From a virus, in the UHGV virus genome UHGV-0293664: a stretch of 64,000 nucleotides of DNA. One strand, written 5' to 3'. The notes under the pieces were generated by a model. That model was given only the letters and a program-made list of their open reading frames with translations. It did not search any database and was not told where the DNA came from. Below, one piece after another: positions 42,875 to 57,402 of the stretch. Within the stretch, counting starts at the first letter, position 1, and the number at the start of each line of letters is the position of its first letter. The position numbers and the translations under genes were made by a program.

Positions 42875-43182
42875 TATTTTAAGTTATCAGGTTGCCAGAG
42901 ATCAGGAGGATTTCTAAAATGGATTTCCTCCTTTTGATATTTTACCTGCCAGGATATTTTAAAATCCTTAGAAAATCAGAAAATGGATCGAAAACTAAAA
43001 TGGATTTTTCAGGGCAGGCACGACGAGATGAACCACTCATCCTGTCGTTTGCACCATATTCCAGACCACCATTACAGATTTCCCGCACATGCTTACATCC
43101 TTCTACTGGAACTTCCTCCGCTTGCCCTTGACCTTTTATGGTAATAATCCAACCACTATCTTGAAGTTGCGATGCAGCTTTT

Positions 43183-43372
43183 CAGGTACTCGATCTGTTT
43201 TTCGTTTCAAAGATTGAATTTTCTGAAAATTTTTCTCGATAAATTTCTCAGTACTCGATCTGTTTTTCGTTTTCTGAATCGGATTTTCTGGAAATCGTTC
43301 CGGCTCTCGACCTGAAATTTTTGGGGACGAAATCGATTTTTCGTTTTCAGAAATGGATTTTTAAAATTTCTA
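43183..43372. repeat. degenerate tandem direct repeats (~65-bp unit, about 2.5 copies), iteron-like
   Basis: TACTCGATCTGTTTTTCGTTT at 43187 and 43252, partial third CGATTTTTCGTTTTC at 43333; GATTTTCTG/GAATTTTCTG sub-repeats. Confidence 0.6.
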
Positions 43373-43477
43373 TATGGGAATATTTTATGGGATACTGTTT
43401 TATAGGAAATTGTTACGGAGGGTAATTAGCGTGCTAATTAAATTTATGAAATGCGAGGAGTTCTCATTTAGAATTTT

Positions 43478-43700
43478 GAATGATAATCATTCTCGTTTGC
43501 AGAATAACGGGCACCCCCGGTGATTGTCTCCCGGCCCCTGTTGCCCCGGCTTGTTATTATAGTATCACACAGGACAAAGAAAGCAAGGACTTTTTGCATA
43601 AATTTTTAGACGATAATGATAATCGTTCTCATTTCATGCAGCGCCCATCCCCGGTGGTTGTCTCCCCCGTCACCGGTGCCTGCCGTCCTTTCGATATGTA
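43478..43700. repeat. tandem duplication (~120-bp unit) each carrying a GC-rich box ...CCGGTG(A/G)TTGTCTCCC...
   Basis: Both units start GATAATC.TTCTC.TTTC; boxes at 43510-43550 and 43641-43688. Confidence 0.6.
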
Positions 43701-43838
43701 TATTGTGCCACCTGGCGGGGCCGCTGTCAACACTTTTCAAAAAATTTTTCTAACCTGATGCGCTAACCGTTGCAACCTGGCGGGGCCAGCCTGGCAGGTC
43801 CGCGTTATAAAGTAAACAGCTACGGAAGAGGTACAAAA

Positions 43839-43988
43839 ATGAAAGGTAATGCTACTCGCCTGGAAAATGTAGTAATTGATGATACGGAAGCTATCGCCCT
43901 GGTCGAGAAGGTTGAAACGGAAGCGCGGGAACATAAAGAAGAGTACGAAAAAATGGTAGTTAACCTGGCGGGGGCGATTCTATCATAA
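43839..43988 (+). CDS. small hypothetical protein (49 aa)
   Basis: ATG 43839 after GGAAGAGG; the longer track ORF from 43770 starts inside repeats. Confidence 0.5.
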   Translation: MKGNATRLENVVIDDTEAIALVEKVETEAREHKEEYEKMVVNLAGAILS

Positions 43989-44088
43989 AAATAATTTAAA
44001 ATAATCGTTGACAGCTCGGACAGCTATTGTTATTCTTATCCTCGCAAGGTGAACAACACCACACCAATTAACAGAGAGGATAAAAATC

Positions 44089-44286
44089 ATGAACGCCTAC
44101 GGAATTAAAGTACGTCGCAACACCCGCCAGGTGGTCACCGATCAAATGGTTTGCCGGGTGGATGTAACCATCAACAACGGGCAAGGCCTTTATAAATTTC
44201 GTCGCGGTCATAGCTATACCCTGCAGCAGCTTAATCGTTGCGCCCTGACAAAAGGTCAGATCAACCACTGGTTTAATAAAAAATAA
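44089..44286 (+). CDS. early small protein
   Basis: 65 aa; SD GAGAGGA. Confidence 0.75.
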   Translation: MNAYGIKVRRNTRQVVTDQMVCRVDVTINNGQGLYKFRRGHSYTLQQLNRCALTKGQINHWFNKK

Positions 44287-44289
44287 ATA

Positions 44290-44318
44290 TTGACATGTAG
44301 TCTGAAACAAAATATACT
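44290..44318 (+). promoter_or_regulatory. sigma70-like promoter
   Basis: TTGACA-17 nt-TATACT. Confidence 0.65.
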
Positions 44319-44350
44319 GAAAGCACAAAAGACACTAAGAGGATAAAATC

Positions 44351-44749
44351 ATGAAAACCACAACCTTTAATTTTGACAATGCTAACTTCTCTTTTTCTGA
44401 TGTTAAAAGCTGCCGCCGTGATCGCGGATTCTACAAGGCCTATAATCTGGTTGTCTTGGACGATGATAATAATTTGCACGAAGTAGCGGAGATCCGGTAC
44501 TATGCCGCCGCCAGCGGTAACACTCACTACTGTGTATTTTGGATTCACGACAACAAGAACAATAAGTACGGTTATACTGGCGGCAAGGCGAGCGGTCACG
44601 GTTATGATAAAGCCAACGCTGCACTTGAAAGCGCATTAAGTGCCATGGGAATCACTGCCGACGGCTGGATCTATGAAGAAGAGTTTTTGGCGGCACTTGC
44701 TAACCGCTTGGGCTATAAAAAGCACATTGTAACGTGCGCCCACGAATAA
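44351..44749 (+). CDS. early protein
   Basis: 132 aa; SD AAGAGGA. Confidence 0.75.
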   Translation: MKTTTFNFDNANFSFSDVKSCRRDRGFYKAYNLVVLDDDNNLHEVAEIRYYAAASGNTHYCVFWIHDNKNNKYGYTGGKASGHGYDKANAALESALSAMGITADGWIYEEEFLAALANRLGYKKHIVTCAHE

Positions 44750-44838
44750 AAAAAAAAAATTATTGACACGCTGCAAAATTAAAGTAAACTAGACACAAAA
44801 GGCGGGAATATTTCCCGCCAACACAAAGGAAAAAGATC

Positions 44839-45243
44839 ATGAATAAGAACGTACGCCGCATCATGAACGAGTTGGCAAACGATGAAAAAATTATTGACAT
44901 GCATTTGATCAACATTTGCCGCCGTTGTGTAACATATAACAACCGCGCCGCAAAAGCGCGTGAGATGAACGCAAAAGGTACCTTAAAGCCATTCCAGGTG
45001 GTGGTAAAGGCCATTAAAGATGTAACTAATACGGCAAACCAGGTACAGGGGAACACCAACGAGAGTACCAATATTGATCCGTCTTACGTAATGAAACGGA
45101 TCCGGACTTGCAAGAATAAAGAGCAGGTGTATAACGTCATAGATTGGCTGGACTCCCTGGGTGATGTGGTTTACAATAGGTTTTCTGCAGCTATCGAGAT
45201 CCAGCTTGACAGATTAGACGGGAAAGTACTAAAAACTTATTGA
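44839..45243 (+). CDS. early protein
   Basis: 134 aa; SD AAAGGAAAAAGA; preceded by TTGACA box and GGCGGGAAnnTTCCCGCC leader hairpin. Confidence 0.75.
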   Translation: MNKNVRRIMNELANDEKIIDMHLINICRRCVTYNNRAAKAREMNAKGTLKPFQVVVKAIKDVTNTANQVQGNTNESTNIDPSYVMKRIRTCKNKEQVYNVIDWLDSLGDVVYNRFSAAIEIQLDRLDGKVLKTY

Positions 45244-45290
45244 GTTTATTTTTAGATGGCCTTGACTTCAGGGCCATCAATAAAGTAAAC
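45244..45290 (+). repeat. conserved post-stop hairpin element, copy 1
   Basis: TTTATTTTTAGATGGCCTTGACTTCAGGGCCATCAATAAAGTAAAC; 7-bp stem GATGGCC/GGCCATC. Confidence 0.6.
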
Positions 45291-45323
45291 TAACCACAAT
45301 TGAGCGGAAAAGGAGGCTTAAAG

Positions 45324-45443
45324 ATGAGCACTACACGCCAGCACACAAAGGTAACTATTATCGTTTGCATCATTGGTTACATCCTGGCGCAAATGTTGAT
45401 GAGTAGCGCCAACAGTTTTGCAAAATTTTTCTTAAATTTTTAA
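45324..45443 (+). CDS. possible small hydrophobic peptide (39 aa)
   Basis: ATG after AAGGAGG; MSTTRQHTKVTIIVCIIGYILAQ...; not in ORF track. Confidence 0.45.
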   Translation: MSTTRQHTKVTIIVCIIGYILAQMLMSSANSFAKFFLNF

Positions 45444-45471
45444 TTGACAAGCTAACCCAAATCGGTATACT
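45444..45471 (+). promoter_or_regulatory. sigma70-like promoter
   Basis: TTGACA-16 nt-TATACT. Confidence 0.65.
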
Positions 45472-45522
45472 TAAACACGTAAACGGGAAAACTTCCCAAA
45501 ACACACAAAAGGAGAAAACACC

Positions 45523-45864
45523 ATGACTACTATGACCGCCGAAGAAAAAGCCCTGCAGATCGCCGCTCTGAAAAAACAGATCGCAGACCTTGAGAATAAG
45601 ATCGATAACTTTGAAATCGACGAGGACAAGTACGACGAAAACTATGATGAATGGCTAGACGAGGTTTATGGCGAAATTATGATCGGAAACATTTCTTTTC
45701 TTCCGTCGCGTATCCTCAAGGAGTTAGATCCTATCGCTTACCGCTGCGGATTTAGCGACTACATCGACAGCCTGGATATTGAGGACGATGAAGAGTACCA
45801 AGAATTGCAGACAGAGATTGAAGAAGTGAAAGAAGAGCTTTCAAAGCTGGAAGAAAACGAGTAA
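45523..45864 (+). CDS. early acidic protein
   Basis: 113 aa; SD AAAGGAGAAAA. Confidence 0.75.
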   Translation: MTTMTAEEKALQIAALKKQIADLENKIDNFEIDEDKYDENYDEWLDEVYGEIMIGNISFLPSRILKELDPIAYRCGFSDYIDSLDIEDDEEYQELQTEIEEVKEELSKLEENE

Positions 45865-45912
45865 AATTTATTTTTAGATGGCCTTGACTCCAGGGCCATC
45901 AATAAAGTAAAC
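45865..45912 (+). repeat. conserved post-stop hairpin element, copy 2
   Basis: AAATTTATTTTTAGATGGCCTTGACTCCAGGGCCATCAATAAAGTAAAC. Confidence 0.6.
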
Positions 45913-45954
45913 TTTATACTGTTAACACTGAACTACTGCAAAGGAGTTAAAACC

Positions 45955-46200
45955 ATGGCAGCACTAATCACCAAGTATTATGCCCCTACTAACACCAAAA
46001 GCGCCCGTATCATGGTAAAAGGCTTCGGACGTAAAAAGGTTTACACCTGGGATTATGCCTTAGATACGGAAGACAACTACACCAACGCGATGACCGATTT
46101 TATTAATGAGCTGAACACGCGGATCTTGACAAATTATAAAATTACCGATATTGCCTATATAGGGGAAGGCGGGATCTGTTTTGTCGGTATCGTCAAATAA
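45955..46200 (+). CDS. early protein
   Basis: 81 aa; SD AAAGGAG. Confidence 0.75.
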   Translation: MAALITKYYAPTNTKSARIMVKGFGRKKVYTWDYALDTEDNYTNAMTDFINELNTRILTNYKITDIAYIGEGGICFVGIVK

Positions 46201-46275
46201 ACTATTTTTTCGGTGGTCCTGGCTGCAGGGCCATCTATAAAGATAATTTATTAACACCGTGAAAGGAGAAAGTAC

Positions 46276-46629
46276 ATGATCAGCGGGGCTAGTTTTATTA
46301 TTGGCGCTATTGCTACGGCTTTAATTGTAAACAAGATCCAATCTAAAAACGAAAAAGATAGCAACGCGCTCACAGAATACCCATTTTGGGTATTCAACGA
46401 CAACGAAGACTACATAATCAAGTACAAGAATGAGAAGGGCGACCAGGTAACACCGCGACCGATCCCGGCTTACAAAATGCAAGAAACACTATACCGCCTA
46501 AAGGCTGGAGGCGCAAAAATCGTAGACTTTTGGGGATATGATTGCAAGGATCAGGAGGTTATAAAACGGCGTATCCGGGCGATTCAGGCAAATATCGAGA
46601 TCAGTAAGGGGGGAAGTTATGAAAATTAA
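46276..46629 (+). CDS. early protein with N-terminal hydrophobic segment
   Basis: 117 aa; SD AAAGGAGAAAG. Confidence 0.75.
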   Translation: MISGASFIIGAIATALIVNKIQSKNEKDSNALTEYPFWVFNDNEDYIIKYKNEKGDQVTPRPIPAYKMQETLYRLKAGGAKIVDFWGYDCKDQEVIKRRIRAIQANIEISKGGSYEN

Positions 46630-46816
46630 TTTCGAAAAAATTGTAAAGCGCCCCCACGATTCCGAAGAGCTGCCGGAACGCCGCCAGCGCAACAATAAAC
46701 TGAATAAACCGAAAAGATTTGGGAAGATCTGGCGGAATCATTATGATCGTAAACTGCCTGGCCTACTCTTGGAACGTGAACGACAGGCGGAACGATACCG
46801 CCACAAAGGCAAATAA
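46619..46816 (+). CDS. small basic protein
   Basis: 65 aa; SD AAGGGGGGAAG; overlaps upstream stop. Confidence 0.6.
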   Translation: MKINFEKIVKRPHDSEELPERRQRNNKLNKPKRFGKIWRNHYDRKLPGLLLERERQAERYRHKGK

Positions 46817-46824
46817 CAACCAAC

Positions 46825-46853
46825 GCCCCGCCATTGTGCGGGGCTTTTTATTT
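46825..46853 (+). terminator. intrinsic terminator
   Basis: GCCCCGC-CATTGT-GCGGGGC then TTTTTATTT. Confidence 0.8.
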
Positions 46854-46997
46854 CTATCCTACGAATAGCGCCCCTGGTTGGTCCCACAAACGCCACAAAA
46901 GCCCCTACCTATGCAATCCCCTTTCTTAGTCTGAAAACATCGCCCAGGGCCGTTTTATGGTGTTAAAAATAGCATTGACAGTGATTTTATTTAAAGC

Positions 46998-47026
46998 TTG
47001 ACACCTTGGAATAGCCCAGATATACT
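46998..47026 (+). promoter_or_regulatory. sigma70-like promoter
   Basis: TTGACA-17 nt-TATACT. Confidence 0.65.
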
Positions 47027-47061
47027 AACCACATCAAAGCAAGAAGGAAGGAGTAAACGCC

Positions 47062-47322
47062 ATGCGTAAATTAAAAAATTTTGATAAAGTCGATATTGTC
47101 CTGAATAATTTTTACTACTGCAATAATAAAGCCGTTTGGTGGCGTGATAGTTCCACCGATAAAGTTAAAGCGCGCTTTCTCCAGGGGCACTGGCAAGGCC
47201 GCCCAGTGATTAAGATCCTGGGGCAATCGGTAGCGTTTAAAAATTGCCGCCGTGTTGATGACGTTGAAGAGATTCTAAACATTTTACGCCACAATAATTT
47301 AAAAAATAGTGTTGACAAGTAA
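47062..47322 (+). CDS. early protein
   Basis: 86 aa; SD GAAGGAAGGAG. Confidence 0.75.
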   Translation: MRKLKNFDKVDIVLNNFYYCNNKAVWWRDSSTDKVKARFLQGHWQGRPVIKILGQSVAFKNCRRVDDVEEILNILRHNNLKNSVDK

Positions 47323-47339
47323 ATCTTGATAAGTATACT
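47312..47339 (+). promoter_or_regulatory. sigma70-like promoter
   Basis: TTGACA-16 nt-TATACT; followed by GGCGGGAAAACTTCCCGCC leader hairpin. Confidence 0.65.
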
Positions 47340-47396
47340 TAAACACACAGGCGGGAAAACTTCCCGCCACTAACAAAGAAAATAGGAGAAAATATC

Positions 47397-48020
47397 ATGA
47401 CCACCGTTAACATTACCGCAGGTTACAATTTATCTTTCGACGTGCTGACCGACGAACAAAAAGAAAAAGCTATTGAAATGGTCCGCGAAAGAGAAGAACA
47501 CAGCGGAGAGGATTTTTTCGCAGAAAGTGTAATTGAATATTATAAAGAACAAGTTTTTCCAGAGTACGGCCTTGAAGATACCGAAGTACATTGGTCCGGA
47601 TTTTGGTGTCAAGGCGATGGCGCGTCAATTAGTGCTGAAAATGTAGACTTAGAAAAATTCTTGCGTAAAGTAAAGGCCCTGACCAAGTTCCGATCAATTC
47701 GTCACTTGTTCGGCACAATGCACGATGGCGAGTTATCAGCCAGTATTGAACGCGACAAGTACAGCCATTACAGCCATGAAAACACTGTAAACGGATACAT
47801 TGATACCACCTGGATAAATCTGACCGCCAAACAAGAAAACAAAGTGGAAGACCTGGAAGAGCTGATCACCGAGACGGCACGGGAGCTATCCCGTAAGGTT
47901 TACGTAGACCTGGAGGAGGCCTATCTAGAACAGTTCACTACCGAAAACCTGATCGATCTTATTAAGGCTAATGATTGGCGGTTTGATGTAGATGAACATG
48001 GCGAGATGACTTTTTCATAA
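47397..48020 (+). CDS. early acidic protein
   Basis: 207 aa; SD AAATAGGAGAAAA. Confidence 0.8.
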   Translation: MTTVNITAGYNLSFDVLTDEQKEKAIEMVREREEHSGEDFFAESVIEYYKEQVFPEYGLEDTEVHWSGFWCQGDGASISAENVDLEKFLRKVKALTKFRSIRHLFGTMHDGELSASIERDKYSHYSHENTVNGYIDTTWINLTAKQENKVEDLEELITETARELSRKVYVDLEEAYLEQFTTENLIDLIKANDWRFDVDEHGEMTFS

Positions 48021-48109
48021 ATAAAGTGTTGCAATAACCTAAAAACCTGCTATATTAAAACTCAAGGGGCAAGACGTTTGCCCCCACACAAAACAAAGAG
48101 GAAAACATC

Positions 48110-48490
48110 ATGAAAAACACTACTAAAGCTATTGACACCGTTATGTTTAACCTGGTTACCTTTCGCGAGGATATGAAAGATCTTCCGCGTGAAACAGTGT
48201 GCGACCATATCGAAAACTATCGCAAACTAATCAAAAAGTTGCCTTTAAAACGTGATCAGTATGCGGCTAACGCCATGCTTAATGCCATGATCAAAAAGAT
48301 GATCCAGTGTGATTTAACTCTGGCCTATGATTATGCAGGTGGTCGTTTTGCAGTATACAATCAGCCCGTGCCTGGTATGAGCACCACAGAAGAATTGCAC
48401 GCGTTAAATCTAAAACAAGACGTGTGGGATAGCATGCCTCGCGTGGTGGTATGGGTAGAAAGCGGGAAGATTTACGGCGATAATTTTTAA
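48110..48490 (+). CDS. early protein
   Basis: 126 aa; SD AAAGAGGAAAA. Confidence 0.8.
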   Translation: MKNTTKAIDTVMFNLVTFREDMKDLPRETVCDHIENYRKLIKKLPLKRDQYAANAMLNAMIKKMIQCDLTLAYDYAGGRFAVYNQPVPGMSTTEELHALNLKQDVWDSMPRVVVWVESGKIYGDNF

Positions 48491-48500
48491 TCAGATAACA

Positions 48501-48532
48501 GGCGGCGGCATATTTGCCGCCGCCTTATTGTT
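48501..48532 (+). terminator. intrinsic terminator
   Basis: GGCGGCGGC-ATATTT-GCCGCCGCC then TTATTGTT. Confidence 0.75.
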
Positions 48533-48560
48533 AAACAGAACTGCAAAAGAGGTACATAGA

Positions 48561-48932
48561 ATGGAATTTATTATTTTGGCTGTATTGGTTGCCTTGTTTA
48601 ACGCCTGGATTGCTGGCAAGATGGGCAGATCCGCCTTTTTATGGTTTATTATATCTATTTTCCTGGGGGTGGTTGCAACTATTGTATTGGTTATCCTTGC
48701 AATTGTTGACAAGGGGAATAATAGAAAGGGTAAAGTATTTTCAGACCTGTACGACGCTCAAACGTTTGTCAACGCATATTATAGTGATCTTCCAGTCTCC
48801 CTACGCTGCAGCCTGGCACAACAAGTTTTCGATGAGGCTAAAACCAGAGATCAAGCCCATGAGATATGTTTAACTGAGGCGGATCGCCTATTTGAGAGGA
48901 ATAGAAAATATGTGGGCCAACCGTTTAAATAA
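48561..48932 (+). CDS. membrane protein
   Basis: ATG 48561 after AAAGAGG; two hydrophobic helices. Confidence 0.7.
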   Translation: MEFIILAVLVALFNAWIAGKMGRSAFLWFIISIFLGVVATIVLVILAIVDKGNNRKGKVFSDLYDAQTFVNAYYSDLPVSLRCSLAQQVFDEAKTRDQAHEICLTEADRLFERNRKYVGQPFK

Positions 48933-49155
48933 TGCCACGTTAATTAATCCCTTTAGTGAAGATTTGAAGCCAGCCGCCTGGCGTGATGGATTCAATACCG
49001 AACGCTTTATTTTCAGGCCTGATCTTGAGGAATTTTATAACAATGGATCGAACAACGACAGAGATAATTTTTCTTGTGATGTGCGTGGTGATGGTACTCC
49101 TGGGGGCCATTGTAAACCACGTCACTACTACCAGGGGGAAAGGGGGAGACGATGA
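48910..49155 (+). CDS. hypothetical protein
   Basis: ATG 48910 after GAGAGG; overlaps upstream gene end. Confidence 0.5.
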   Translation: MWANRLNNATLINPFSEDLKPAAWRDGFNTERFIFRPDLEEFYNNGSNNDRDNFSCDVRGDGTPGGHCKPRHYYQGERGRR

Positions 49156-49271
49156 CACCCAAGGATAAGCCACGCACCAATAAGGCGCGCCGTGTTATGG
49201 TGTGGCTGGAGATCATCGCCCTTGAAATATTGCTAGGCGTAGGGATGTACTTTATCGCTGTAAGTAACTAA
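49152..49271 (+). CDS. possible small membrane peptide (39 aa)
   Basis: ATG after GGGGGAGA; MTPKDKPRTNKARRVMVWLEIIALEILLGVGMYFIAV; terminator follows. Confidence 0.45.
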   Translation: MTPKDKPRTNKARRVMVWLEIIALEILLGVGMYFIAVSN

Positions 49272-49275
49272 GAAC

Positions 49276-49303
49276 GGCCCCCCGATCATGGGGGCCTATC
49301 TTT
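49276..49303 (+). terminator. intrinsic terminator-like hairpin
   Basis: GGCCCCC-GATCAT-GGGGGCC then TATCTTT. Confidence 0.55.
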
Positions 49304-49326
49304 AAAAAAATTTTTCTTCCGGGGTG

Positions 49327-49354
49327 TTGCAATCCGGTCCGGAATGTGGATAAT
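49327..49354 (+). promoter_or_regulatory. sigma70-like promoter
   Basis: TTGCAA-16 nt-GATAAT. Confidence 0.55.
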
Positions 49355-49409
49355 AACAATCAACGGGGAGCTAATCCCACCACCACAAAAACCAGAAAGG
49401 AGAAACAAA

Positions 49410-49610
49410 ATGAGCAACAATATCCGCGTTATTAACTTCAAAAAAGAAGAAAAAATTGCCGTGCTGATTGACGGTCAAGAAATCTTCAAGGGCGACTATG
49501 AAGATCATCAAACGGCGATTAGTATCACCCGCGTGATTGGTTACCATAATTTCTACCCCCAAGGTGCTGAGGCAGCAGTTAAACGAATCAAAGAGATTGT
49601 AGGCCTGTAA
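49410..49610 (+). CDS. early small protein
   Basis: ATG 49410 after AAAGGAGAAAC; 66 aa. Confidence 0.7.
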   Translation: MSNNIRVINFKKEEKIAVLIDGQEIFKGDYEDHQTAISITRVIGYHNFYPQGAEAAVKRIKEIVGL

Positions 49611-49658
49611 AATTTATTTTTAGATGGCCTTGACTCCGGGGGCCATCAATAAAGTAAA
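49611..49658 (+). repeat. conserved post-stop hairpin element, copy 3
   Basis: AAATTTATTTTTAGATGGCCTTGACTCCGGGGGCCATCAATAAAGTAAAT. Confidence 0.6.
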
Positions 49659-49702
49659 TTTAAACCCTGTTAAAATAATCAGTGCAAAAAGGAGTAATGA
49701 TC

Positions 49703-50002
49703 ATGTTTATACCCGCCAATAATCTTTATTTCTTTGATGGTCAAATCGTAGACGGCGTGGAAGTTGAGATCACCGGGTGCCCTGGTGGTCAGGCTATGAC
49801 TTTTCGGAATAATGCTTTTGATGATTCTCATATCGTTATGAGAATGGAAGTTACGAAGCTGGACGACAAGAAAACACTTATTGACTATTCTGTGAAAGAT
49901 CATCCAGACTACCGCATGATCCATGGCGATTTGTGCAGTGTTGACCGTGACAAGGTGGGCGGCATTGTGATCGCTATTGTGAACGATGTTTTCTCAAACT
50001 AA
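49703..50002 (+). CDS. early protein
   Basis: ATG 49703 after AAAGGAG; 99 aa. Confidence 0.7.
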   Translation: MFIPANNLYFFDGQIVDGVEVEITGCPGGQAMTFRNNAFDDSHIVMRMEVTKLDDKKTLIDYSVKDHPDYRMIHGDLCSVDRDKVGGIVIAIVNDVFSN

Positions 50003-50019
50003 TTTCAGCAGGTGATTTT

Positions 50020-50370
50020 ATGAAAGTCAAACTATATTACCTTAATGAGCTTAACCCCCTTGCCCAGGTCCGCGCCCTGGCTAATACCTTGATTTGTGAG
50101 AAATCTGCATATTGTGTTGAGCTTAACGCCATGCGTGAACGTCTCAAAGGGGGTTACTTCGACATCCATGCTGCAATCAACGGCCTGAATATGGAATTTA
50201 TACGCTTACGTAACAGCCGCCGGAATCTGGCAAGAATGGAACAAGATCCGGCCCACCTTCGTAAGCTGGTTATTGAAAATCATCTGATGTTTAATGCCGA
50301 GGGTGATTATTACCATTTTCACCGCAAACGCTGGTACCGTGGCGGCAATACAGGCAAGAATGCAAAATAA
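50020..50370 (+). CDS. early protein
   Basis: 116-aa ORF; weak SD. Confidence 0.65.
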   Translation: MKVKLYYLNELNPLAQVRALANTLICEKSAYCVELNAMRERLKGGYFDIHAAINGLNMEFIRLRNSRRNLARMEQDPAHLRKLVIENHLMFNAEGDYYHFHRKRWYRGGNTGKNAK

Positions 50371-50571
50371 GGCCCCAGGCAGGGCCTGCAGCGATATAAT
50401 CACATAAAGGCTATGCGGTTGCATGGCCTTTATTATTTTAGCGTTACAGCGACCCCCAAGGCGCTTAAAAAAATTTTAAAGAAGTACTTGCATCAAGCCC
50501 TACAATATGGATAATAGGACGTGTCGGGGGGCGGCCCCCAATCATTAACCGGATAGATAGGAGTTAAAACC

Positions 50572-50856
50572 ATGGCTATTGTTACCGCTGGCGATGTAGT
50601 AGAAATGGAAGCAAAATACTTAAAAGCGGGTATGCATATCCTACGCAACGATCTTGAACTGGTCCTGACAATGGTTGACTATAACCCAGGGCAAGATTAT
50701 CCAAGTGTTGACTACTTTTTTAGGTATGTTGATGAAGAATTAAAAGAGGATGAGGCTTATCAGGGCGAATTCTGTAATTTCTTTTGCTCTGATGAGGTTG
50801 TAAAAGTTATCTATCAACCTGGCGTACCTTTCCCGTTGCACGCTATCAATAAATAA
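50572..50856 (+). CDS. early protein
   Basis: 94 aa; SD ATAGGAG; TTGCAT-17 nt-ATAATA box upstream. Confidence 0.75.
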   Translation: MAIVTAGDVVEMEAKYLKAGMHILRNDLELVLTMVDYNPGQDYPSVDYFFRYVDEELKEDEAYQGEFCNFFCSDEVVKVIYQPGVPFPLHAINK

Positions 50857-50911
50857 ACCTGGCGGGGCCGAAAAGGCCCCCAATTATGAAAATAAAGAGA
50901 GGTAAATCATC

Positions 50912-51145
50912 ATGATGGAACAAATTAAACGCGCTGAGGCTATTAATGGCAATGTGATCTACTTTGTCAGCAAAAACGAAAAAGGCGTACCATATGCGGC
51001 GGTAATAGTACAGCCTGACGGTGATTATTGGTTTACTGTGTACGGCGCTTATTCTTTCGGGCGTCCGGTGCATGATAGAATTTTGAAAGTAGCGAACCCC
51101 ACCGGGAAGAATATCACGGCAGAAAAATTTTTTGAAAATAATTGA
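50912..51145 (+). CDS. early protein
   Basis: 77 aa; SD AGAGAGG. Confidence 0.75.
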   Translation: MMEQIKRAEAINGNVIYFVSKNEKGVPYAAVIVQPDGDYWFTVYGAYSFGRPVHDRILKVANPTGKNITAEKFFENN

Positions 51146-51169
51146 CAACGTTTTAAATTAGTTTAAGAT
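51142..51169 (+). promoter_or_regulatory. sigma70-like promoter
   Basis: TTGACA-16 nt-TAAGAT then conserved GTATCACGTAGGG start region. Confidence 0.6.
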
Positions 51170-51226
51170 GTATCACGTAGGGGAGACAAGCGCCCTATTA
51201 AACGCAACAGGAAGAGGATAAACACC

Positions 51227-51466
51227 ATGAAAAGCAATAAAGGTTATAACGGTTACAAAAACAAAACTCATTGGAATGTAAGCCTTTGGATTAATAACGA
51301 TGAGTCATTGTACCGGTTGGCCCAAGGCTTTATCAACGCTAATGCTAATCGTAATGATGCGGCGCGGGATATGATGCTTTTTCTGGAGCTAACCGGACAA
51401 GATAAGACCCCGGACGGCTTCAAGTACAGCACTACGGCGATCCGTGCCGCGATGGTTGGAATGTGA
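51227..51466 (+). CDS. early protein
   Basis: 79 aa; SD GAAGAGGA. Confidence 0.75.
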   Translation: MKSNKGYNGYKNKTHWNVSLWINNDESLYRLAQGFINANANRNDAARDMMLFLELTGQDKTPDGFKYSTTAIRAAMVGM

Positions 51467-51475
51467 TAAAATAGC

Positions 51476-51503
51476 TTGACACTGTTTTTTATTCTGGTAT
51501 AGT
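51476..51503 (+). promoter_or_regulatory. sigma70-like promoter
   Basis: TTGACA-16 nt-TATAGT. Confidence 0.6.
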
Positions 51504-51645
51504 TTATCACATAGGACGGCACGACAGAGTACTACGGATTCGAGGGTGTCCGGTGCGGTGAACTTGCTCGCGACCTTAAGGAAGATCCAGACCTGGAAGA
51601 TCTGCCCATCACCGTAAACGGGAAAACTTACGTAAACCGTTAACC

Positions 51646-51780
51646 ATGAGAAAGATAATCATCACCTTGGGGATTGTGGCGGGATCGCTGGCGCTCTTTC
51701 CCCTTATGGTTAGATATGTGCTGATCAGTATTGTCCTGATAGTTAGTGATTTATTGGAAACGGTTGGCACCTTGTTTTAA
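51646..51780 (+). CDS. possible small membrane peptide (44 aa)
   Basis: MRKIIITLGIVAGSLALFPLMVRYVLISIVLIV...; no clear SD; not in ORF track. Confidence 0.3.
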   Translation: MRKIIITLGIVAGSLALFPLMVRYVLISIVLIVSDLLETVGTLF

Positions 51781-51792
51781 AGAGCGGTAAAA

Positions 51793-51984
51793 ATGAATAT
51801 CGAACAAGTTAGAAAGGTATTGGCGGTACTGCGTTATCATAATCATAGAAAGGTCATAGACGATCCTGATTATGTCGATTCAAGCCTGGAAGGGGATACA
51901 CTACAAGCCATAAGCAACATGCAAGAATTGCTAAAGCGCATGACAGAGAAAAACAGATCTGATTATATAGGTGACGAGATCTAA
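51793..51984 (+). CDS. early small protein
   Basis: 63-aa ORF; weak SD. Confidence 0.6.
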   Translation: MNIEQVRKVLAVLRYHNHRKVIDDPDYVDSSLEGDTLQAISNMQELLKRMTEKNRSDYIGDEI

Positions 51985-51990
51985 AATAGC

Positions 51991-52018
51991 TTGCACAATG
52001 TATCTGATAGTGTAAGAT
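51991..52018 (+). promoter_or_regulatory. sigma70-like promoter
   Basis: TTGCAC-16 nt-TAAGAT then GTATCACGTAGGG as at 51170. Confidence 0.6.
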
Positions 52019-52068
52019 GTATCACGTAGGGCGGCAATAGTGCCGCTCACAACTGGAAGGAAAACACC

Positions 52069-52272
52069 ATGACTACAGCTAACCGCCTGATCGCCGTCCT
52101 GAACAAAGCAAAGGCTAACCGCCTGGATGTTCAAATCAAAGAGCAAGCAAATGGCGAGATCCTTGCTACGGTGTCCGATGGCGGTTATGTATCGGAATCA
52201 TTTTTATCAGGGAGCTTAGATCATCTTGTTTGGAAATTAGAAATTATCGTGGAGGATATGCAGATCATCTAA
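52069..52272 (+). CDS. early small protein
   Basis: 67 aa; SD GGAAGGAAAA; terminator-like hairpin follows. Confidence 0.75.
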   Translation: MTTANRLIAVLNKAKANRLDVQIKEQANGEILATVSDGGYVSESFLSGSLDHLVWKLEIIVEDMQII

Positions 52273-52326
52273 TCTTTACAAAACAGGGCTTGTTTTTATC
52301 CTGTTTTTTGTTATACTTGTTTCACG

Positions 52327-52372
52327 GCAGGCACCTGGCGACGGGGGGAGACAATCACCGTGGGTGCCTGTC
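52327..52372 (-). repeat. inverted copy of the GC-rich box found at 43510 and 43641
   Basis: GGGGGGAGACAATCACCGTGGG is the reverse complement of CCACGGTGATTGTCTCCCC-type box; flanked by CAGGCACC/GGTGCCTG. Confidence 0.6.
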
Positions 52373-52476
52373 ATGTAAGAACTATAAAAACCGTTGACAT
52401 CTGCCAGGGGGTGGGGTAACATTTATCTTGAAGGGGCAAAAGTGCCCACACAACAACCAGAAGAGAGGAAAACATT

Positions 52477-52749
52477 ATGTCAAGCTGGATTAATCAAGAA
52501 GTCGAATCACGTTTTAATGCTATTTGGGATCTCATCGAAAAAGAGGACGGAACATCAAGCCCCTACCTCAACAATTTGGAATTCCATTTTGTGGAAGCGA
52601 TGAACGCAGAACATGATCACGAAGGTGGTGCGGATGAATTCGCTAAAGGATATGGCTTCAACAATGCCAACGAAATGATCGAGGCGGTTGTACTCCAGGC
52701 TGAGGAAGATTATCAATTAAAAACGCTTGAATTCTGCCGCCGTAAGTAA
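52477..52749 (+). CDS. early protein
   Basis: 90 aa; SD AGAGAGGAAAA. Confidence 0.75.
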   Translation: MSSWINQEVESRFNAIWDLIEKEDGTSSPYLNNLEFHFVEAMNAEHDHEGGADEFAKGYGFNNANEMIEAVVLQAEEDYQLKTLEFCRRK

Positions 52750-52811
52750 TAAGATAATGACACGGGCCAAAAGGCCCACTAAACAAAAACCACATAAAGA
52801 GGAAAAACATC

Positions 52812-53075
52812 ATGAAACGCCTTGATCAGCTCAAATTAGTTCAATATATGGCTTATCGTGTTCTTGAAGTCCAGAAAGGTAGCAAAAAAGAGGTTTGCGA
52901 GAAAGCTTATAAGATCTTCACTCGCAAAAAAGATGACTGGATGCTACGCCAGACCAAAAAGGCTGACATCTTGGGGTACCTGGAAGAAGAGATCCGACTT
53001 GAAGAGCAAGAAGAGATCCGCCGTAGTGAGGCAGATTATCAGGCCGCTTGGGAAAACTGGATGAGCAACAAATAA
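52812..53075 (+). CDS. early protein
   Basis: 87 aa; SD AAAGAGGAAAAA. Confidence 0.75.
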   Translation: MKRLDQLKLVQYMAYRVLEVQKGSKKEVCEKAYKIFTRKKDDWMLRQTKKADILGYLEEEIRLEEQEEIRRSEADYQAAWENWMSNK

Positions 53076-53140
53076 TACAACAAGGTGCACGGTCAGGGGC
53101 TTAAAGCCCCTTGATCACATAAAAATTATGCTATCCCTGG

Positions 53141-53169
53141 TTGACAGGGATCGGCAGTTTTGCTATATT
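53141..53169 (+). promoter_or_regulatory. sigma70-like promoter
   Basis: TTGACA-17 nt-TATATT; -35 embedded in CCCTGG...CAGGG inverted repeat. Confidence 0.6.
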
Positions 53170-53218
53170 CTTTTTTGAAGGGAAGTTGTAAGAAAATTAA
53201 CTAAGAGGTAAAAACACC

Positions 53219-53638
53219 ATGAACATTAAATCTAATAATCCGGCATATAGCTTTGATAACGCTTTTTGTCACGGTCCGGCGGCGAAAGGATTCGAAATCG
53301 ATGGTAAACTAATTATTGTCAATGTTGACGGGGAAGAGGTTGCAGTATATCCGGTGGCAGACGTAAAAAGCCGTTTACAATGCCGCATGGATGTTACCGC
53401 CTATCAGCTTGATCCGGTCCGCATAGTTGCCCTGGTCCTGGAGGAAGAAATTAAAGCCATGCACCATAGCAACAGGTTTATTGGTGACGCTCAGGATAAT
53501 ATGAAGGTGTGCCGCCATAAAGTTAATGAAGTGCTTAAAGAGTACGGCTATAAGGATTTAATGATCAAGCGTGATGAAAAATTCCGCTACCGTAACGACC
53601 TGGCAAATCGGATTTTTGAAATATACGAATCATTATAA
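53219..53638 (+). CDS. early protein
   Basis: 139 aa; SD TAAGAGG. Confidence 0.8.
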   Translation: MNIKSNNPAYSFDNAFCHGPAAKGFEIDGKLIIVNVDGEEVAVYPVADVKSRLQCRMDVTAYQLDPVRIVALVLEEEIKAMHHSNRFIGDAQDNMKVCRHKVNEVLKEYGYKDLMIKRDEKFRYRNDLANRIFEIYESL

Positions 53639-53656
53639 TTTCTTAACTGAATTATC

Positions 53657-53685
53657 AAGGGGCTTAAAGGCCCCTTTCTTTTTGT
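53657..53685 (+). terminator. intrinsic terminator closing the plus-strand early block
   Basis: AAGGGGC-TTAAA-GCCCCTT then TCTTTTTG. Confidence 0.8.
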
Positions 53686-56201
53686 CTGCTCTTCTCCTAC
53701 CATAAACGGCCCTACCTGGCAAGTGGAATAATTGACTAGCCATCAATCCCACACACTGTACAAATATACATGGAAAATAACTATTGCATAATTTTTCATT
53801 GTGTGGTAGCAAGTCCATTTTTACCCGTTTTCTCTCCCAAAATTGCACGTAATGCCGCTATTGCACAAATTTTAACCTGATGCACATCTCCAATATCTTG
53901 TCAACAACTAAAAATCTTTATAAGTCATACACTTACACAGCATCGAAAGCGTGTTCTACGCGAAAAATCGAGTATAACTATAGCCGCCAGATCTCAGAAT
54001 TCACGTACGCACACCATTCTATAGTCCGCTAAGTATTTATTCCAACCACAGAATAACGGAATAGTCAATACCTGTACAAAATAATTATTCGTATAAACTG
54101 CATAACATAAACCTGTCCAGGTGTCAACATTTTTCGTAAACAGTCTGAAATTGTCACGATAGGTTACTATAATCAGAGAAATCTTTAGTCGTCTAATGTT
54201 TACTGCACATAACTATACTGACTGGAATCATTAGATGACTAATAGAAAGATAAGAAATAGTTAACAATGTAATTGTTTTACCTGTAACAATAAGGCAACT
54301 ATGCAAACGAATGTCATGGCGCGACGGAGTCGCGACATAATATAAAAGCAGTAACCATCACCCCCGTGATAGTTTGTCTGCAAACTATTAATCAGATCAT
54401 AGTTGCCTTGTATTTAGTTAATCATGACATAACAAGCAAGGCAACTATAGATCTGCTAATAGTTGCCCTGCTTTTATATTATGTCATATATTATTAACCT
54501 GTTAATTGTCAGCTTGTTGGATGTTAGCTTGTCAATTATTAACTTGCTAATTGTTTTCATGCAAACGAATGTCATGGCTGATTATTTCTATGTAAATGGT
54601 TTGTTCGTAAACAGTTTATTCGGGAACAGTTTATTCGGGAACAGTGAGGCATGCAATAGTAACAATTGTTATTGTATCCAGTGTGTTGAGTATGCCCAGT
54701 GTGTCCAGTATGTCAGACAAGTTTTTCCTCTCTTTGTCAAGTGCCGCATTAAAAATTTACAAACTGGTATGGTAGCATTTTTGCGGCCCTGTTTACATTC
54801 AGCAGTGTATGTATAACCCTTGTTGTGTGGGCGTTTAGACGTCTAGACGGTTGGAAGTCTACAGGTCAATATCTAATCTATTGGCTGCTAACTATATCCC
54901 ACACAAATAGTAAGAAATATGATTGTTATATGCGTAAACTGTAACTCATGTTATCAATCCCTGTATGTATCGCCAGTGGTTCGCATAATGGGTATTATGT
55001 TAAATTGCCAGTAATGATAACGATTCTCACAATGATAGGTATTCTCATTCATCCACACAAAATAGTTTGCAAATGTTGTGCCACTGTGTGAACGGCCTGG
55101 CCTATTAATTTCTCTCACTGCCTCGATATTTGAGAATTGTTATAAGAATGAGAAGTATTCCCATTCCGTCCGCCTGGCAGCGCTCCTGTAGGTCCTGCAA
55201 GGACTCTAGCTGAAAGCTAGACCCTTCGGGCCTCCCTGTAGGTCAGGTCAAAATCGTGGTAGAATTGGGCCTGTTCAGATATTTCTGGCTGACTCTTCAG
55301 GTCTGTGTGGGAAAAGCCAACCTCTCCGGCGGGGCAGGGGGTCATGACGGTAAAATTGCAGGTCAATTAAAAAATTTACGTGGTGTATGAAGCGCTCTTC
55401 AGGTAAGGCAGGTATTATGGGATGAAACCCTCTTCAGGCAATGATATTTGTGGGTGTGATATTTGCTGGAAAGCCAGATATGACGGGACTCCCGGCGGGG
55501 CAGGGGTAGTACAGACAGGGGAAATATGGGGGATGTGGTTGGGGAAATTGATCAGGCAGGAAGAGTATGGAATATGTTACAGATATGTTAAATATGAAGG
55601 TAGGATATTTGTAGGATTTGTGTGTAAAATCAAAGACTTAAGTGGTGTTGTGGTATTTTCTATAAATAATTCAAGTTTAATAGGCAATATTTGTCTCTAT
55701 CCGCTTTGTGTGGTAAACAGATTCAGATGAGATTGGTTTACAGGTGTATACATAATATACAAATTAAAGATACAAGAAACCCCCCTCCCCCTTCGGCTAC
55801 CATTCACCTTTTCCTCTGACTGGTACTTAAACACTTATTCAGACTCTTCAGGTTATCACCCATATATCATATGGCAGTGACTGGTGTCCTCCGGCCCCTC
55901 TTTCGTCACCCGTCCGCTTCGCCATGCTAATGCCATAGCCAAATGTTCGGTTGTTCACCCTGTTCACTCAGGTGTATCTCCATACCCCTTCAAACCGAAG
56001 AGAACAGAAAACCCGAATTACTCGGTAAAAGAAAAGAGAAGAACTTAATTTTATCAGGATAGGCAAGAATGTCAAGGCATGACTGCTCACTAAACAAGCA
56101 AACAGTCATGTGTGGGAGGTAAGTGATTGTGGTGGTAGGAAATTTAGTTGAAAGATGTGTTATAGGTGCTCCAGCACTTTATCCAGGCAGCTAATTGTGT
56201 G
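53686..56201. other. 2.5-kb non-coding, AT-rich, repeat- and palindrome-rich region at convergence of plus and minus transcription
   Basis: No convincing ORF; direct repeats, large inverted repeats and tetraloop hairpins (see findings). Confidence 0.7.
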
Positions 56202-56417
56202 TCAGTCCAGCGGTTCATCCTCTACTTCACTGAAATCAATGTTCATGGTCTCCTCCCAACCATCGATCTCAGCACAAGAGTGGAGTTCTTTAGGGTTTAC
56301 CCCCAAAGCCTCAGCAACAGAGTCTATATTTAACACCTCTGGCAGGTATGATTCATCGAATTCAAGGTAAATCAGGCCACGAGTGTTGTCAGCTCCACCA
56401 AATATCTCTATCTTCAT
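56202..56417 (-). CDS. small acidic protein
   Basis: 71 aa; GAGGAG SD 6 nt upstream. Confidence 0.75.
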   Translation of the reverse strand: MKIEIFGGADNTRGLIYLEFDESYLPEVLNIDSVAEALGVNPKELHSCAEIDGWEETMNIDFSEVEDEPLD

Positions 56418-56538
56418 TGAATCTCCTCTGGAAATGAGAGTGTGAACAGGGTTTCATACGTTACAACACGCTGGAATTATGCACGTTTGCCTCTTCAGGC
56501 CATGCTCTAGCATGAGGAACCTGTGTGGGCTCGGTGCT

Positions 56539-56943
56539 TCATAGTCTACCACCTCTGAACTCTTCGTGCTCAGGCATAATAGAGAACCAGATATCTACGA
56601 TGTCTCCCCACGTCAAGTCATCAGCCTCAGGATCTACCTGGAGCGAAGATGGAGAATCTTCAGAATCGAAGTTTTCCCCTTTCACTGGCTCAGCCAGGCT
56701 ACATATGGTCGTCACTCCTTCAGATGCATGTATGTTGATCATGTTCCACCCGTGAGTATTCCGGCAACAGCCGCTATGGACGTAATGATCATCAGGATCA
56801 CCACTAAAACCTCGGATAATGTTCTCATTGTGTATTCCATATTCTCCAAACGATGTGTGGATACTATCACGAGAGCGGTAATGTGTCAACAGAAACGCCG
56901 CGAGGGTTTGGTTAAAATCCGAGCGTATGGTGATTTTGGTCAA
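56539..56943 (-). CDS. possible acidic protein (start uncertain)
   Basis: 134-aa ORF with TTG at track start; lies downstream of a minus-strand terminator; competing plus-strand ORF looks low-complexity. Confidence 0.35.
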   Translation of the reverse strand: MTKITIRSDFNQTLAAFLLTHYRSRDSIHTSFGEYGIHNENIIRGFSGDPDDHYVHSGCCRNTHGWNMINIHASEGVTTICSLAEPVKGENFDSEDSPSSLQVDPEADDLTWGDIVDIWFSIMPEHEEFRGGRL

Positions 56944-57049
56944 AACGGACGTGCGTTCTCGCTACGCTCGAAATAGAGAGTTGCTTGTAAGCCGCCCTTA
57001 AACGCTCTGTAATGAGATTAACTGCTTAAGGTATGGAATCGTTCACCGG

Positions 57050-57078
57050 ATAAAGAAAAGGACGCCACAGAGCGTCCT
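57050..57078 (-). terminator. intrinsic terminator (minus strand)
   Basis: On minus strand AGGACGC-TCTGTG-GCGTCCT then TTTTCTTTA. Confidence 0.7.
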
Positions 57079-57102
57079 ATGTGCCTTAAATTTGATACTT
57101 TG

Positions 57103-57402
57103 CTATACCCATGAAGGCTTGTCTAGGTTTGAGTAACTAAAAGGTGTCAAAAGGTGACTGTCAAAATCTTTCAAACTATCCAGATCTTTTTCCTCGTCTT
57201 GACACCATCTGTGCCTACATTTATTGTTGTAGTGCATGGAGTGCATAGCGTTCTGCAACTTAACAGGTACAAGGGATTCAGGAGTAGATAGTATTGTTGG
57301 GTATGCCAGAACCACCTCAAACAATGGAAACACATCGAAACTGAAGTTTATTTCTGCTGAGGTTGCTGGCATATAGGAGTATTTAGCTGTCGTTGTAGAC
57401 AT
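57103..57402 (-). CDS. hypothetical protein
   Basis: ATG at 57402 after GAGGTGG; track start 57414 is GTG. Confidence 0.65.
   Translation of the reverse strand: MSTTTAKYSYMPATSAEINFSFDVFPLFEVVLAYPTILSTPESLVPVKLQNAMHSMHYNNKCRHRWCQDEEKDLDSLKDFDSHLLTPFSYSNLDKPSWV

Follow-up and report, generated by a model that had tools for sequence, protein, structure and literature searches.

Why do the small genes between positions 43839 and 53638 of the virus genome UHGV-0293664 stand so often behind the same short unit of promoter, hairpin and ribosome-binding site, and what might these hairpins do? All coordinates given here are those of the window, that is, the whole 64-kb (64,000-nucleotide, nt) stretch of DNA that was analysed, and all features lie on its plus strand unless otherwise indicated. 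Over 90–96% of its length, the 9.8-kb block is 92–94% identical to many Vequintavirus genomes, including those of FFH2, rV5 and SophiaRose (GenBank has roughly 290 related genomes), and on this comparison the window is an rV5-like Vequintavirus, an E. coli phage, with the block as its hyperplastic region of small ORFan genes. The explanation favoured here, which we regard as probable overall, is that of shuffled cassettes whose hairpins would act as 5' stabilisers and insulators. Its first part, the reading of the block as a set of shuffled cassettes resembling the promoter-early stem-loop (PeSL) elements of T4-like phages, appears highly probable; the second, a role of the leader hairpins as 5'-terminal stabilisers of the mRNA, seems quite possible and is put forward tentatively.

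Eleven GC-rich leader hairpins were found in the block, upstream of genes 4, 6, 11, 12, 16, 19, 20, 21, 24, 25 and 26, and leaders of this kind are confined to 44.7–52.8 kb within the window. A first-pass annotation of this DNA had pointed to several leader hairpins and named three of them. The hairpins are real and all three are present, at exactly 44801–44819 and 48066–48084 in two cases and one base away from the reported 47349–47367 in the third (47350–47368), but their number had been underestimated, with three named against 11 found, and a four-copy repeat described below had been missed. In the gene 4 cassette (44763–44819), the promoter TTGACA-16-TAAACT (hexamers with the length of their spacer; P194 of rV5) is followed after 10 nt by the hairpin GGCGGGAATATTTCCCGCC at 44801–44819, which has a folding z-score of −4.2 and differs from its relatives only in the loop. 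The gene 11 cassette (47312–47368) has the same layout, with TTGACA-16-TATACT (rV5 P185), 10 nt and the hairpin GGCGGGAAAACTTCCCGCC at 47350–47368 (z −4.5), as does that of gene 12 (48029–48084), with TTGCAA-16-TATATT, 9 nt and GGGGCAAGACGTTTGCCCC at 48066–48084 (z −2.7). Upstream of gene 24 (51991–52048), TTGCAC-16-TAAGAT leads through GTATCACGTA into the hairpin GGGCGGCAATAGTGCCGCTC at 52029–52048, which contains one G·U pair (z −2.9), and upstream of gene 26 (52727–52811) TTGAAT-17-TAAGAT is followed by 8 nt, the hairpin GGGCCAAAAGGCCC at 52764–52777, a CA-rich leader and a Shine–Dalgarno (SD) sequence (z −3.6).

The remaining units vary on this theme. The gene 25 cassette (52394–52447) joins TTGACA-17-TAACAT (rV5 P168), 11 nt and the hairpin GGGCAAAAGTGCCC at 52434–52447, and the gene 19 cassette (50488–50539) joins TTGCAT-16-GATAAT, a promoter scoring 8/12, with 10 nt and the poly-G/poly-C hairpin GGGGGGCGGCCCCC at 50526–50539. 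The hairpin of the gene 6 cassette (45444–45497; TTGACA-16-TATACT, rV5 P192), GGGAAAACTTCCC at 45485–45497, is weakened, and most relatives have one more closing pair; that of the gene 16 cassette (49327–49378; TTGCAA-16-GATAAT), GGGAGCTAATCCC at 49366–49378, is weak, and relatives have GGGGAG…CTCCCC in its place. Both are point-mutated versions of better stems found in relatives. The gene 21 cassette (51142–51195) carries TTGACA-16-TAAGAT, then GTATCACGTAGGG and a weak hairpin, and the spacer between genes 19 and 20 contains the hairpin GGGGCCGAAAAGGCCCC at 50864–50880, with no convincing promoter found upstream of it.

The position of the hairpins is more uniform than their sequence. Ten of the 11 follow a recognisable promoter, with the stem beginning 8–13 nt, typically 10 nt, after the −10 hexamer, and when 14 related loci are considered together with the window, 27 of 38 distinct promoter-proximal hairpins have stems that begin 9–11 nt after the −10. 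Given the usual transcription start 6–8 nt after this hexamer, the stem would begin at about +3 to +5 of the transcript. Folding z-scores of five window leaders are −2.6 or lower and those of three others lie between −1.8 and −2.2. In the predicted folds of all 11 leaders, the SD sequence and the AUG are left unpaired.

The leader hairpins do not resemble the terminators of the same block. Six of the latter were found: after gene 9 (46825–46852, a GC stem followed by TTTTTATT), gene 12 (48500–48533, rV5 t184), gene 15 (49276–49304, rV5 t181), gene 18 (50404–50441, rV5 t177), gene 24 (52280–52312, a terminator-like hairpin with a T-run) and gene 27 (53657–53684, rV5 t164). These have 5–7 T in the 8 nt that follow the stem, whereas the 11 leader hairpins have 0–3, which argues that the latter are not intrinsic terminators on the sense strand. 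This bears directly on a first alternative, the view taken of PeSL stem-loops by their authors, in which the hairpins would attenuate or terminate transcription arriving from upstream cassettes, so that each gene is expressed mainly from its own promoter without early transcription spilling downstream. The stem-loop of PeSL211/210 lowered lacZ expression to a degree similar to that of the rrnB T1 terminator (PMC2839356), eight of the 11 window hairpins follow a gene that lacks a canonical terminator, and the annotators of phage EdH4 called the gene 4 hairpin a terminator. However, with so few T residues intrinsic termination should be poor, and a terminator placed downstream of a cassette's own promoter would also cut off its own gene. 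Moreover, the hairpin cassettes of genes 16, 19 and 25 lie directly downstream of a canonical terminator, where an attenuator would be redundant, and attenuation has no need of a fixed distance of 9–11 nt from the −10. Attenuation is thus considered unlikely as the role of these hairpins.

Site variation was compared in nine hairpins with up to 12 orthologues each. Variable positions make up 64% of loop sites, 29% of flanking sites and 18% of stem sites, and the difference between stem and loop is highly significant (p = 9e-7). Individual changes also tend to spare the pairing. In the gene 12 hairpin, both arms were lengthened together in one related locus, L018 (GGCGGGCGA…TTGCCCGCC), and A-to-G changes in L013 and L018 keep the pairing as G·U; the gene 11 hairpin of L004 (GGTGGGAA…TTCCCGCC) is likewise held together through a G·U pair. 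In most relatives the leader upstream of gene 21 has been swapped outright, and the replacement carries a different hairpin in the same place. Non-homologous leaders more generally have different stems at the same position.

A second type of cassette places its stem elsewhere. The D1 element, one of the repeat families of the block (D1, D2, D3, D7 and D12), is found in four copies of the form TTTATTTTTAGATGGCC-TTGACnnCAG-GGCCATCAATAAAGTAAAC, upstream of genes 5 (45232–45291), 7 (45854–45913), 8 (46189–46248, a degenerate copy) and 17 (49600–49660). A 7-bp stem encloses the −35 hexamer TTGACT, and TAAACT lies 18 nt downstream; in the first copy, an AT-rich tract precedes the stem GATGGCC/GGCCATC. 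A reading of the D1 hairpin as a terminator was rejected, as on both strands the stem has U-rich sequence ahead of it and A-rich sequence behind it.

How these units behave between genomes was assessed by comparing insertions and deletions of the block with 12 relatives, reading the junctions directly. The relatives are GenBank records, as an IMG/VR search with gene 11 yielded no more than two close loci. Of the seven recurrent breakpoints examined, six fall within an element of these units (a leader, a hairpin, a D1 repeat or a −35 hexamer); only the gene 18 indel, at 50016/50360, lies outside any cassette. Locus L003 lacks genes 5 and 6 and has a single chimeric D1 copy, with a left flank of the gene 5 type and a right flank of the gene 7 type, which identifies D1 copies 1 and 2 as the crossover partners. 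EdH4, L003 and SYGMH1 lack the unit made up of a promoter, gene 27 and a terminator, and their junction is one hybrid of two GGGGCTTAAAGCCCC hairpins; the left crossover site of this gene 27 cassette is the hairpin at 53096–53115 and the right one is the terminator at 53657–53684. At the gene 26 cassette, an additional ORF166 is present in rV5 and L003, flanked by duplicated segments of CA-rich leader and SD sequence. At the gene 10 promoter (46975–47026; a relic −35 TTGACA at 46975, then TTGACA-17-TATACT, rV5 P186), L004 carries one more gene, inserted between TTGACA hexamers that are 17 nt apart in the window. Upstream of gene 21, all relatives part from the window exactly after the −35 hexamer, at 51142–51147. 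Read directly from the sequences, these comparisons show single genes gained, lost and swapped with most junctions in elements of the cassettes, both within and between phage groups, and the elements appear to act as breakpoints.

A relic of a further event can be seen at 51476–51645, where the promoter TTGACA-16-TATAGT is fused to what remains of a gene, with the deletion junction at a shared ATAGG. Relatives have an intact copy of this gene (rV5 ORF171), and the apparent leader of 142 nt at 51504–51645 is what is left of its 3' end. By this comparison it is a fragment of a pseudogene, produced by a deletion associated with a cassette.

The cassettes extend beyond the Vequintaviruses. Positions 51513–52360 of the window are collinear, at 86% identity, with Phapecoctavirus Schickermooser, and this segment includes the gene 24 cassette, which is absent from most Vequintaviruses; a search with the gene 24 leader gave paralogous copies in L019 (four) and in L020, Justusliebigvirus Paula (two). 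The equivalent regions of Paula and Schickermooser contain an even more uniform cassette, composed of TTGACA-16-TAnnAT, GTATCACGTAG, a hairpin of the form GGCGGGAAATGGTTTCCCGCC or GGGCGGCAATAGTGCCGCTC, and a purine SD sequence, the cassette sequence of the Stephanstirmvirinae reading GTATCACGTAGGGCGG…. The start region GTATCACGTAGGG, correctly reported in the first-pass annotation as common to two promoters, at 51170 and 52019, is explained by this cassette of the Paula/Schickermooser type, and the gene 24 cassette belongs to its dispersed family.

Such findings could be explained without any role for the RNA, if hairpins and repeats acted at the DNA level only, as recombination modules or as sites for a phage protein, and had spread by promoting shuffling. 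The indel junctions in stem-loops, −35 hexamers and leaders fit this possibility, as does the dispersal of one cassette family over three genera, and crossovers between the PeSLs of phage RB49 were mapped in or beside the stem-loop (PMC2839356). Recombination, however, requires identity and not pairing, yet the stems are conserved while the loops drift. Furthermore, unrelated stems occupy the same position, changes compatible with G·U pairing are tolerated, and the loops have no shared motif that a protein could read. An exclusively DNA-level role is therefore judged to be quite improbable.

The same stems can also be read on the other strand, as minus-strand terminators that would protect the block from a convergent transcription unit or from spurious antisense transcription. 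A consensus scan lists 44819–44801, 47368–47350 and 48085–48065 as resembling minus-strand terminators, there are 5–6 A in the 8 nt that lead up to the hairpins of genes 4, 11 and 12, and in the annotation of Paula the equivalent hairpins are marked as minus-strand terminators (1645–1669, 4968–4991, 5225–5252, 7538–7561 and 8124–8149 in the coordinates of locus L020). Nevertheless, this A-rich 5' flank is limited to three of the 11 hairpins, the others having 1–4 A in 8 nt, and the leader in its entirety, upstream as well as downstream of the stem, is rich in A. The consensus flank GTATCACGTAG of the Stephanstirmvirinae would make a poor U-tract, and G·U pairs of the sense strand (GGGCGG…CCGCTC) become A·C mismatches in the antisense RNA. 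Termination of antisense transcription is accordingly regarded as highly improbable. In EdH4, the gene 4 hairpin (2461–2479 in the coordinates of locus L014) is labelled as a terminator on the plus strand. Judging by the flanking sequence, neither the EdH4 nor the Paula label fits well, and these opposite-strand terminator labels, which fit neither sequence, call for correction in the annotation.

Three other types of element were rejected. The stems, of 5–9 bp, are far below the roughly two helical turns needed for an RNase III site. Hairpin promoters of the N4 type do not apply, as the hairpins lie downstream of good sigma-70 promoters and do not replace them. With regard to lambda-type nut/boxB sites, for which a conserved GNRA-like pentaloop and a boxA would be expected, the loops are heterogeneous (TAT, AAC, GACGT, AAAG, AAAA, ATAG and GAAAA), and no boxA-like CGCTCTTTA was seen on reading the leaders.

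The closest precedent for the block is the PeSL of phages RB49 and phi1, a composite unit whose consensus early promoter is combined with an AT-rich tract, an SD sequence and a GC stem-loop that can take any of five positions (PMC2839356). PeSLs flank ORFans in hyperplastic regions and mediate modular shuffling (Arbiol et al. 2010, PMC2839356; Comeau et al. 2014, PMC4122927). At least 10 units of the window carry all PeSL components. In both systems an AT-rich tract and a consensus sigma-70 promoter are combined with a stem-loop rich in GC (poly-G/poly-C), and a CA-rich leader goes with a stereotyped SD/ATG region. In both, the repeats are numerous and lie in a region of small ORFans, and indels between close relatives break inside the cassettes. 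The positional classes of PeSLs include a stem-loop over the −35, which the four D1 copies fit, and one downstream of the −10. The main class of the block, 9–11 nt after the −10, lies slightly beyond the PeSL position just before the start site and is probably inside the transcript. In about 20 RB49 PeSLs that were read directly, a CA-rich leader and a stereotyped GGAGAATCAAAATG are present, and the stem-loop sits in the −35/−10 spacer or around the −10, thus outside the transcript of its own cassette, whereas the dominant class of the block should form the 5' end of the transcript. The two systems also differ in their hosts among the phages, the PeSLs being known from Straboviridae and the present cassettes from Vequintavirinae and Stephanstirmvirinae, and in the nature of the evidence: in RB49/phi1, mini-circles, promoter strength and terminator activity were measured, whereas the block is known from sequence only. 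No nucleotide homology to the RB49 cassettes was found, a blastn search with the gene 11 cassette matching only Vequintavirus records, and the literature search returned no paper that ties PeSLs to rV5-like or phi92-like phages. The block thus appears to be PeSL-like by function and not a member of the family by descent.

The leader of T7 gene 10 carries a stem-loop at its start. Among the mRNAs of E. coli, protective 5' stem-loops are also established (Emory 1992; Bouvet & Belasco 1992; Arnold 1998; references given in the review PMC3997798). The stabilisers of ompA and papA consist of a short stable hairpin a few nt from the 5' end and an open ribosome-binding region, which is the layout predicted here; these are single tested cases of protection against 5'-end-dependent decay by RNase E, whereas in the block the protection is proposed for a module present in many copies. 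A third comparison is with the morons that lambdoid phages carry (Hendrix et al. 2000, discussed in PMC2839356), single genes with their own promoter and terminator that are gained and lost between relatives, and which the gene 27 and gene 24 cassettes resemble. Morons have no conserved repeated module at their flanks and are usually transcribed from prophages, whereas here the flanking modules are the sites of crossover.

In the mechanism that we favour, the commonest cassette would be read in a fixed order. An AT-rich tract precedes a host-type sigma-70 promoter (TTGACA, 16–17 nt, TAnnnT), which unmodified host RNA polymerase would fire upon entry of the DNA. About 10 mostly A/C bases, containing the start point, would lead into the short GC-rich hairpin, followed by an unstructured CA-rich leader poor in G and U, a strong purine SD sequence, an A-rich spacer ending in A-Y-C, and the ATG. 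Lying 3–5 nt from the presumed 5' end and having no U-tract, the hairpin would not terminate its own transcript; it may instead cap the 5' end and hinder the 5'-end-dependent decay of E. coli, in which the action of RppH precedes that of RNase E, and it may also keep upstream sequence from pairing with the ribosome-binding site. The first-pass annotation had suggested that the hairpins might be stability elements, and the fixed distance from the −10, the lack of terminator tails and the conserved stems with drifting loops fit this suggestion. In the second cassette type, with its four copies, the stem would be formed around the −35. Modules of 20–60 nt that recur between unrelated genes would then be substrates for homologous or microhomology recombination, which may delete, insert or swap single genes within the phage group and with related groups.

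Several points weigh against this explanation. Four of the 11 window hairpins are weak, with z-scores above −1.3, no recognisable promoter precedes the hairpin at 50864, and roughly one promoter in two lacks a hairpin. The 5'-terminal position depends on the usual distance of 6–8 nt from the −10, and a start 7 nt after the −10 would leave an unpaired 5' tail of 3–5 nt, at the upper edge of reported protection. One PeSL stem-loop lowered downstream expression in the manner of a strong terminator, which points to attenuation and not to stabilisation (PMC2839356). No substitution compensated on both sides of a stem was found among the close orthologues or by RNAalifold on ten gene 12 orthologues, where the correlated insertion in the two arms of L018 was broken up in the MAFFT alignment, and the stem juxtapositions of G:T and A:C, 11 to 7, are not decisive for the functional strand. 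At the level of sequence, the case for structure is therefore one of position, of conservation in stems compared with loops, and of convergence, and not one of classical covariation. The evidence for recombination is a comparison of genomes only and gives neither direction nor frequency. Finally, the literature was searched for data on transcription starts, half-lives or timing in rV5-like phages and none were found; one paper that pairs Vequintaviruses with RNA-seq had sequenced a T5-like phage.

A bolder version of the idea would make the 5'-hairpin cassette a standard part shared across lineages (Vequintavirinae, Phapecoctavirus and Justusliebigvirus), read by a dedicated factor and coupled to an integron-like capture of genes. 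The same stem-loop would then mark the 5' end of every accessory-gene mRNA and be read by a phage or host factor, which might shield early mRNAs from a nuclease used by the phage against host RNA or might time their shut-off, and the shared module would be an attachment point for capturing genes of unrelated phages. We consider this very doubtful. The favoured explanation of shuffled cassettes with 5' stabiliser and insulator hairpins involves no new mechanism, as both of its halves have precedents. If it were confirmed, the PeSL idea would extend beyond T4-like phages to rV5-like and phi92-like phages, two groups in wide therapeutic and biocontrol use, and there would be an explanation for why the accessory-gene region differs between otherwise near-identical isolates. 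The cassettes also resemble designs of synthetic biology, in that a strong promoter and a strong ribosome-binding site are joined by a 5' clamp hairpin and an open leader, and they are candidates for insulated expression parts.

The promoters on which the cassettes are built are themselves unusually dense. A consensus scan of the block gave 48 promoter-like sites, compared with 26.5±4.7 in shuffled sequence, and a stricter scan gave 11 sites scoring at least 10/12 on the plus strand, compared with 1.66±1.26 expected from 300 dinucleotide shuffles, and 6 sites scoring at least 11/12, compared with 0.13; on the minus strand it gave 2 sites. Promoter-like sites precede 18 of the 27 genes, 10 of them strong and 8 scoring 7–9/12. 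These figures bear out the first-pass annotation in its claims of dense near-consensus sigma-70 promoters, far above shuffled expectation, and of a promoter for most genes. The −10 hexamers seen are TATACT, TATTCT, TAAACT, TATATT, TATAGT, TAAGAT, TAACAT and GATAAT; TATAAT, which had been included among them, does not occur as an exact −10 inside the block. Beyond the cassettes, gene 2 has TTGACA-17-TATTCT at 44008–44036 and no leader hairpin (rV5 P195A in Table S4, named P195B in the GenBank record), gene 3 has TTGACA-17-TATACT at 44290–44318 with an unstructured leader (rV5 P195), and gene 27 has TTGACA-17-TATATT at 53141–53169 (rV5 P164).

Much of this had been annotated in rV5. For the region in question, Table S4 of Kropinski et al. 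(2013, PMC3606486) lists the nine promoters P164, P168, P174, P185, P186, P192, P194, P195 and P195A and the terminators t164, t177, t181 and t184. All of the terminators, and all of the promoters except P174, which is replaced in this window, match sites found here. That paper, in which the word "hairpin" does not occur, is silent on leader hairpins and on the −35 hairpin repeat with its four copies, and it includes neither the weaker promoters nor any link to gene shuffling. The promoter density of the block is thus already published as a prediction, and the leader hairpins are not part of that publication.

Translation starts are stereotyped too. The ribosome-binding regions had been described in the first-pass annotation as formulaic, and positions −13 to −9 are indeed almost exclusively purine (AGAGGA or AAGGAG). 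Across the 27 genes, A is found at −3 in 23, at −5 in 21 and at −13 in 21, and C at −1 in 17.

As for the genes themselves, 27 plus-strand open reading frames (ORFs), encoding 39–207 aa, were counted between 43839 and 53638, close to the earlier estimate of about 25; the delimitation draws on ORF and start calls, PHROG matches and synteny with rV5. All 27 proteins match a PHROG family, each of unknown function, and with a match for every ORF even those of 39 aa look real. Among the 20 block proteins scanned against Pfam, only those of gene 9 (Phage_1_1) and gene 21 (DUF7249) gave matches above threshold. The block is syntenic with rV5 from ORF197 down to ORF164, in an orientation reversed relative to the rV5 record, and lies at the far end of the leftward unit that Kropinski et al. 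(2013, PMC3606486) designate "10-1-238-164".

Gene 9 (46619–46816, 65 aa) matches PF08200, bacteriophage T7 protein 1.1, with an E-value of 1e-10. In T7 this protein is expressed early. The early timing proposed in the first-pass annotation is a conjecture drawn from the host-like sigma-70 promoters and from this one gene resembling the T7 early gene 1.1, and the proposed host-takeover role finds no support, all 27 proteins being of unknown function. For gene 21 (51227–51466), it is the coding sequence and not the leader that recurs, at 81–92% nucleotide identity, in unrelated phages, among them Phapecoctavirus, phage PGT2 (42 kb) and jumbo phages (about 350 kb; A4 and phAPEC6 are examples). 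This recurrence suggests recent horizontal transfer, and the homology stops at the start codon. In base composition, the sense strand at 44000–48000 is unusually A-rich, with an AT skew of 0.17–0.20 and a GC skew near 0; the replication-gene region upstream has a GC skew of 0.10–0.18, so the accessory block differs from it in composition.

A tRNA scan of the window found no tRNAs. A search of the whole window against Rfam at gathering thresholds, and of the two flanking non-coding regions at E ≤ 1, gave nothing meaningful, the one hit scoring 22 bits against a gathering score of 126.

The first of these flanking regions, about 0.9 kb upstream of the block (42900–43838), contains no convincing gene. 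It carries iteron-like AAATGGATTTT/GGATTTTC repeats at about 42916–43360, three tandem units of about 65–74 nt at 43186–43374, and two copies of AATGATAATC(A/G)TTCTC, each followed by a GC-rich element, and could represent a replication origin or an array of protein-binding sites. Three copies of the core motif CGGTGATTGTCTCCC were found, compared with 0.05 expected, two on the plus strand at 43518–43532 and 43652–43666 and one on the minus strand at 52346–52360; the inverted copy sits in a strong 45-nt hairpin (about 52325–52375) between the gene 24 terminator and the gene 25 promoter. The sequence ACCTGGCGGGGCC is found four times, always on the plus strand, with two copies upstream of gene 1 (43710 and 43775), one at the end of gene 1 (43963) and one at the stop of gene 19 (50857); 0.63 copies were expected, and 1 of 100 shuffles reached four.

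On the other side of the block, about 3.7 kb (53700–57400) are devoid of ORFs and are followed by minus-strand genes, and it is here that the rightward and leftward units converge. This stretch corresponds to the "non-coding" box of the rV5 paper (PMC3606486). Its GC content falls to 0.385 over 53001–55000, and direct and inverted repeats are present at 54256–54929 and 54334–54485.

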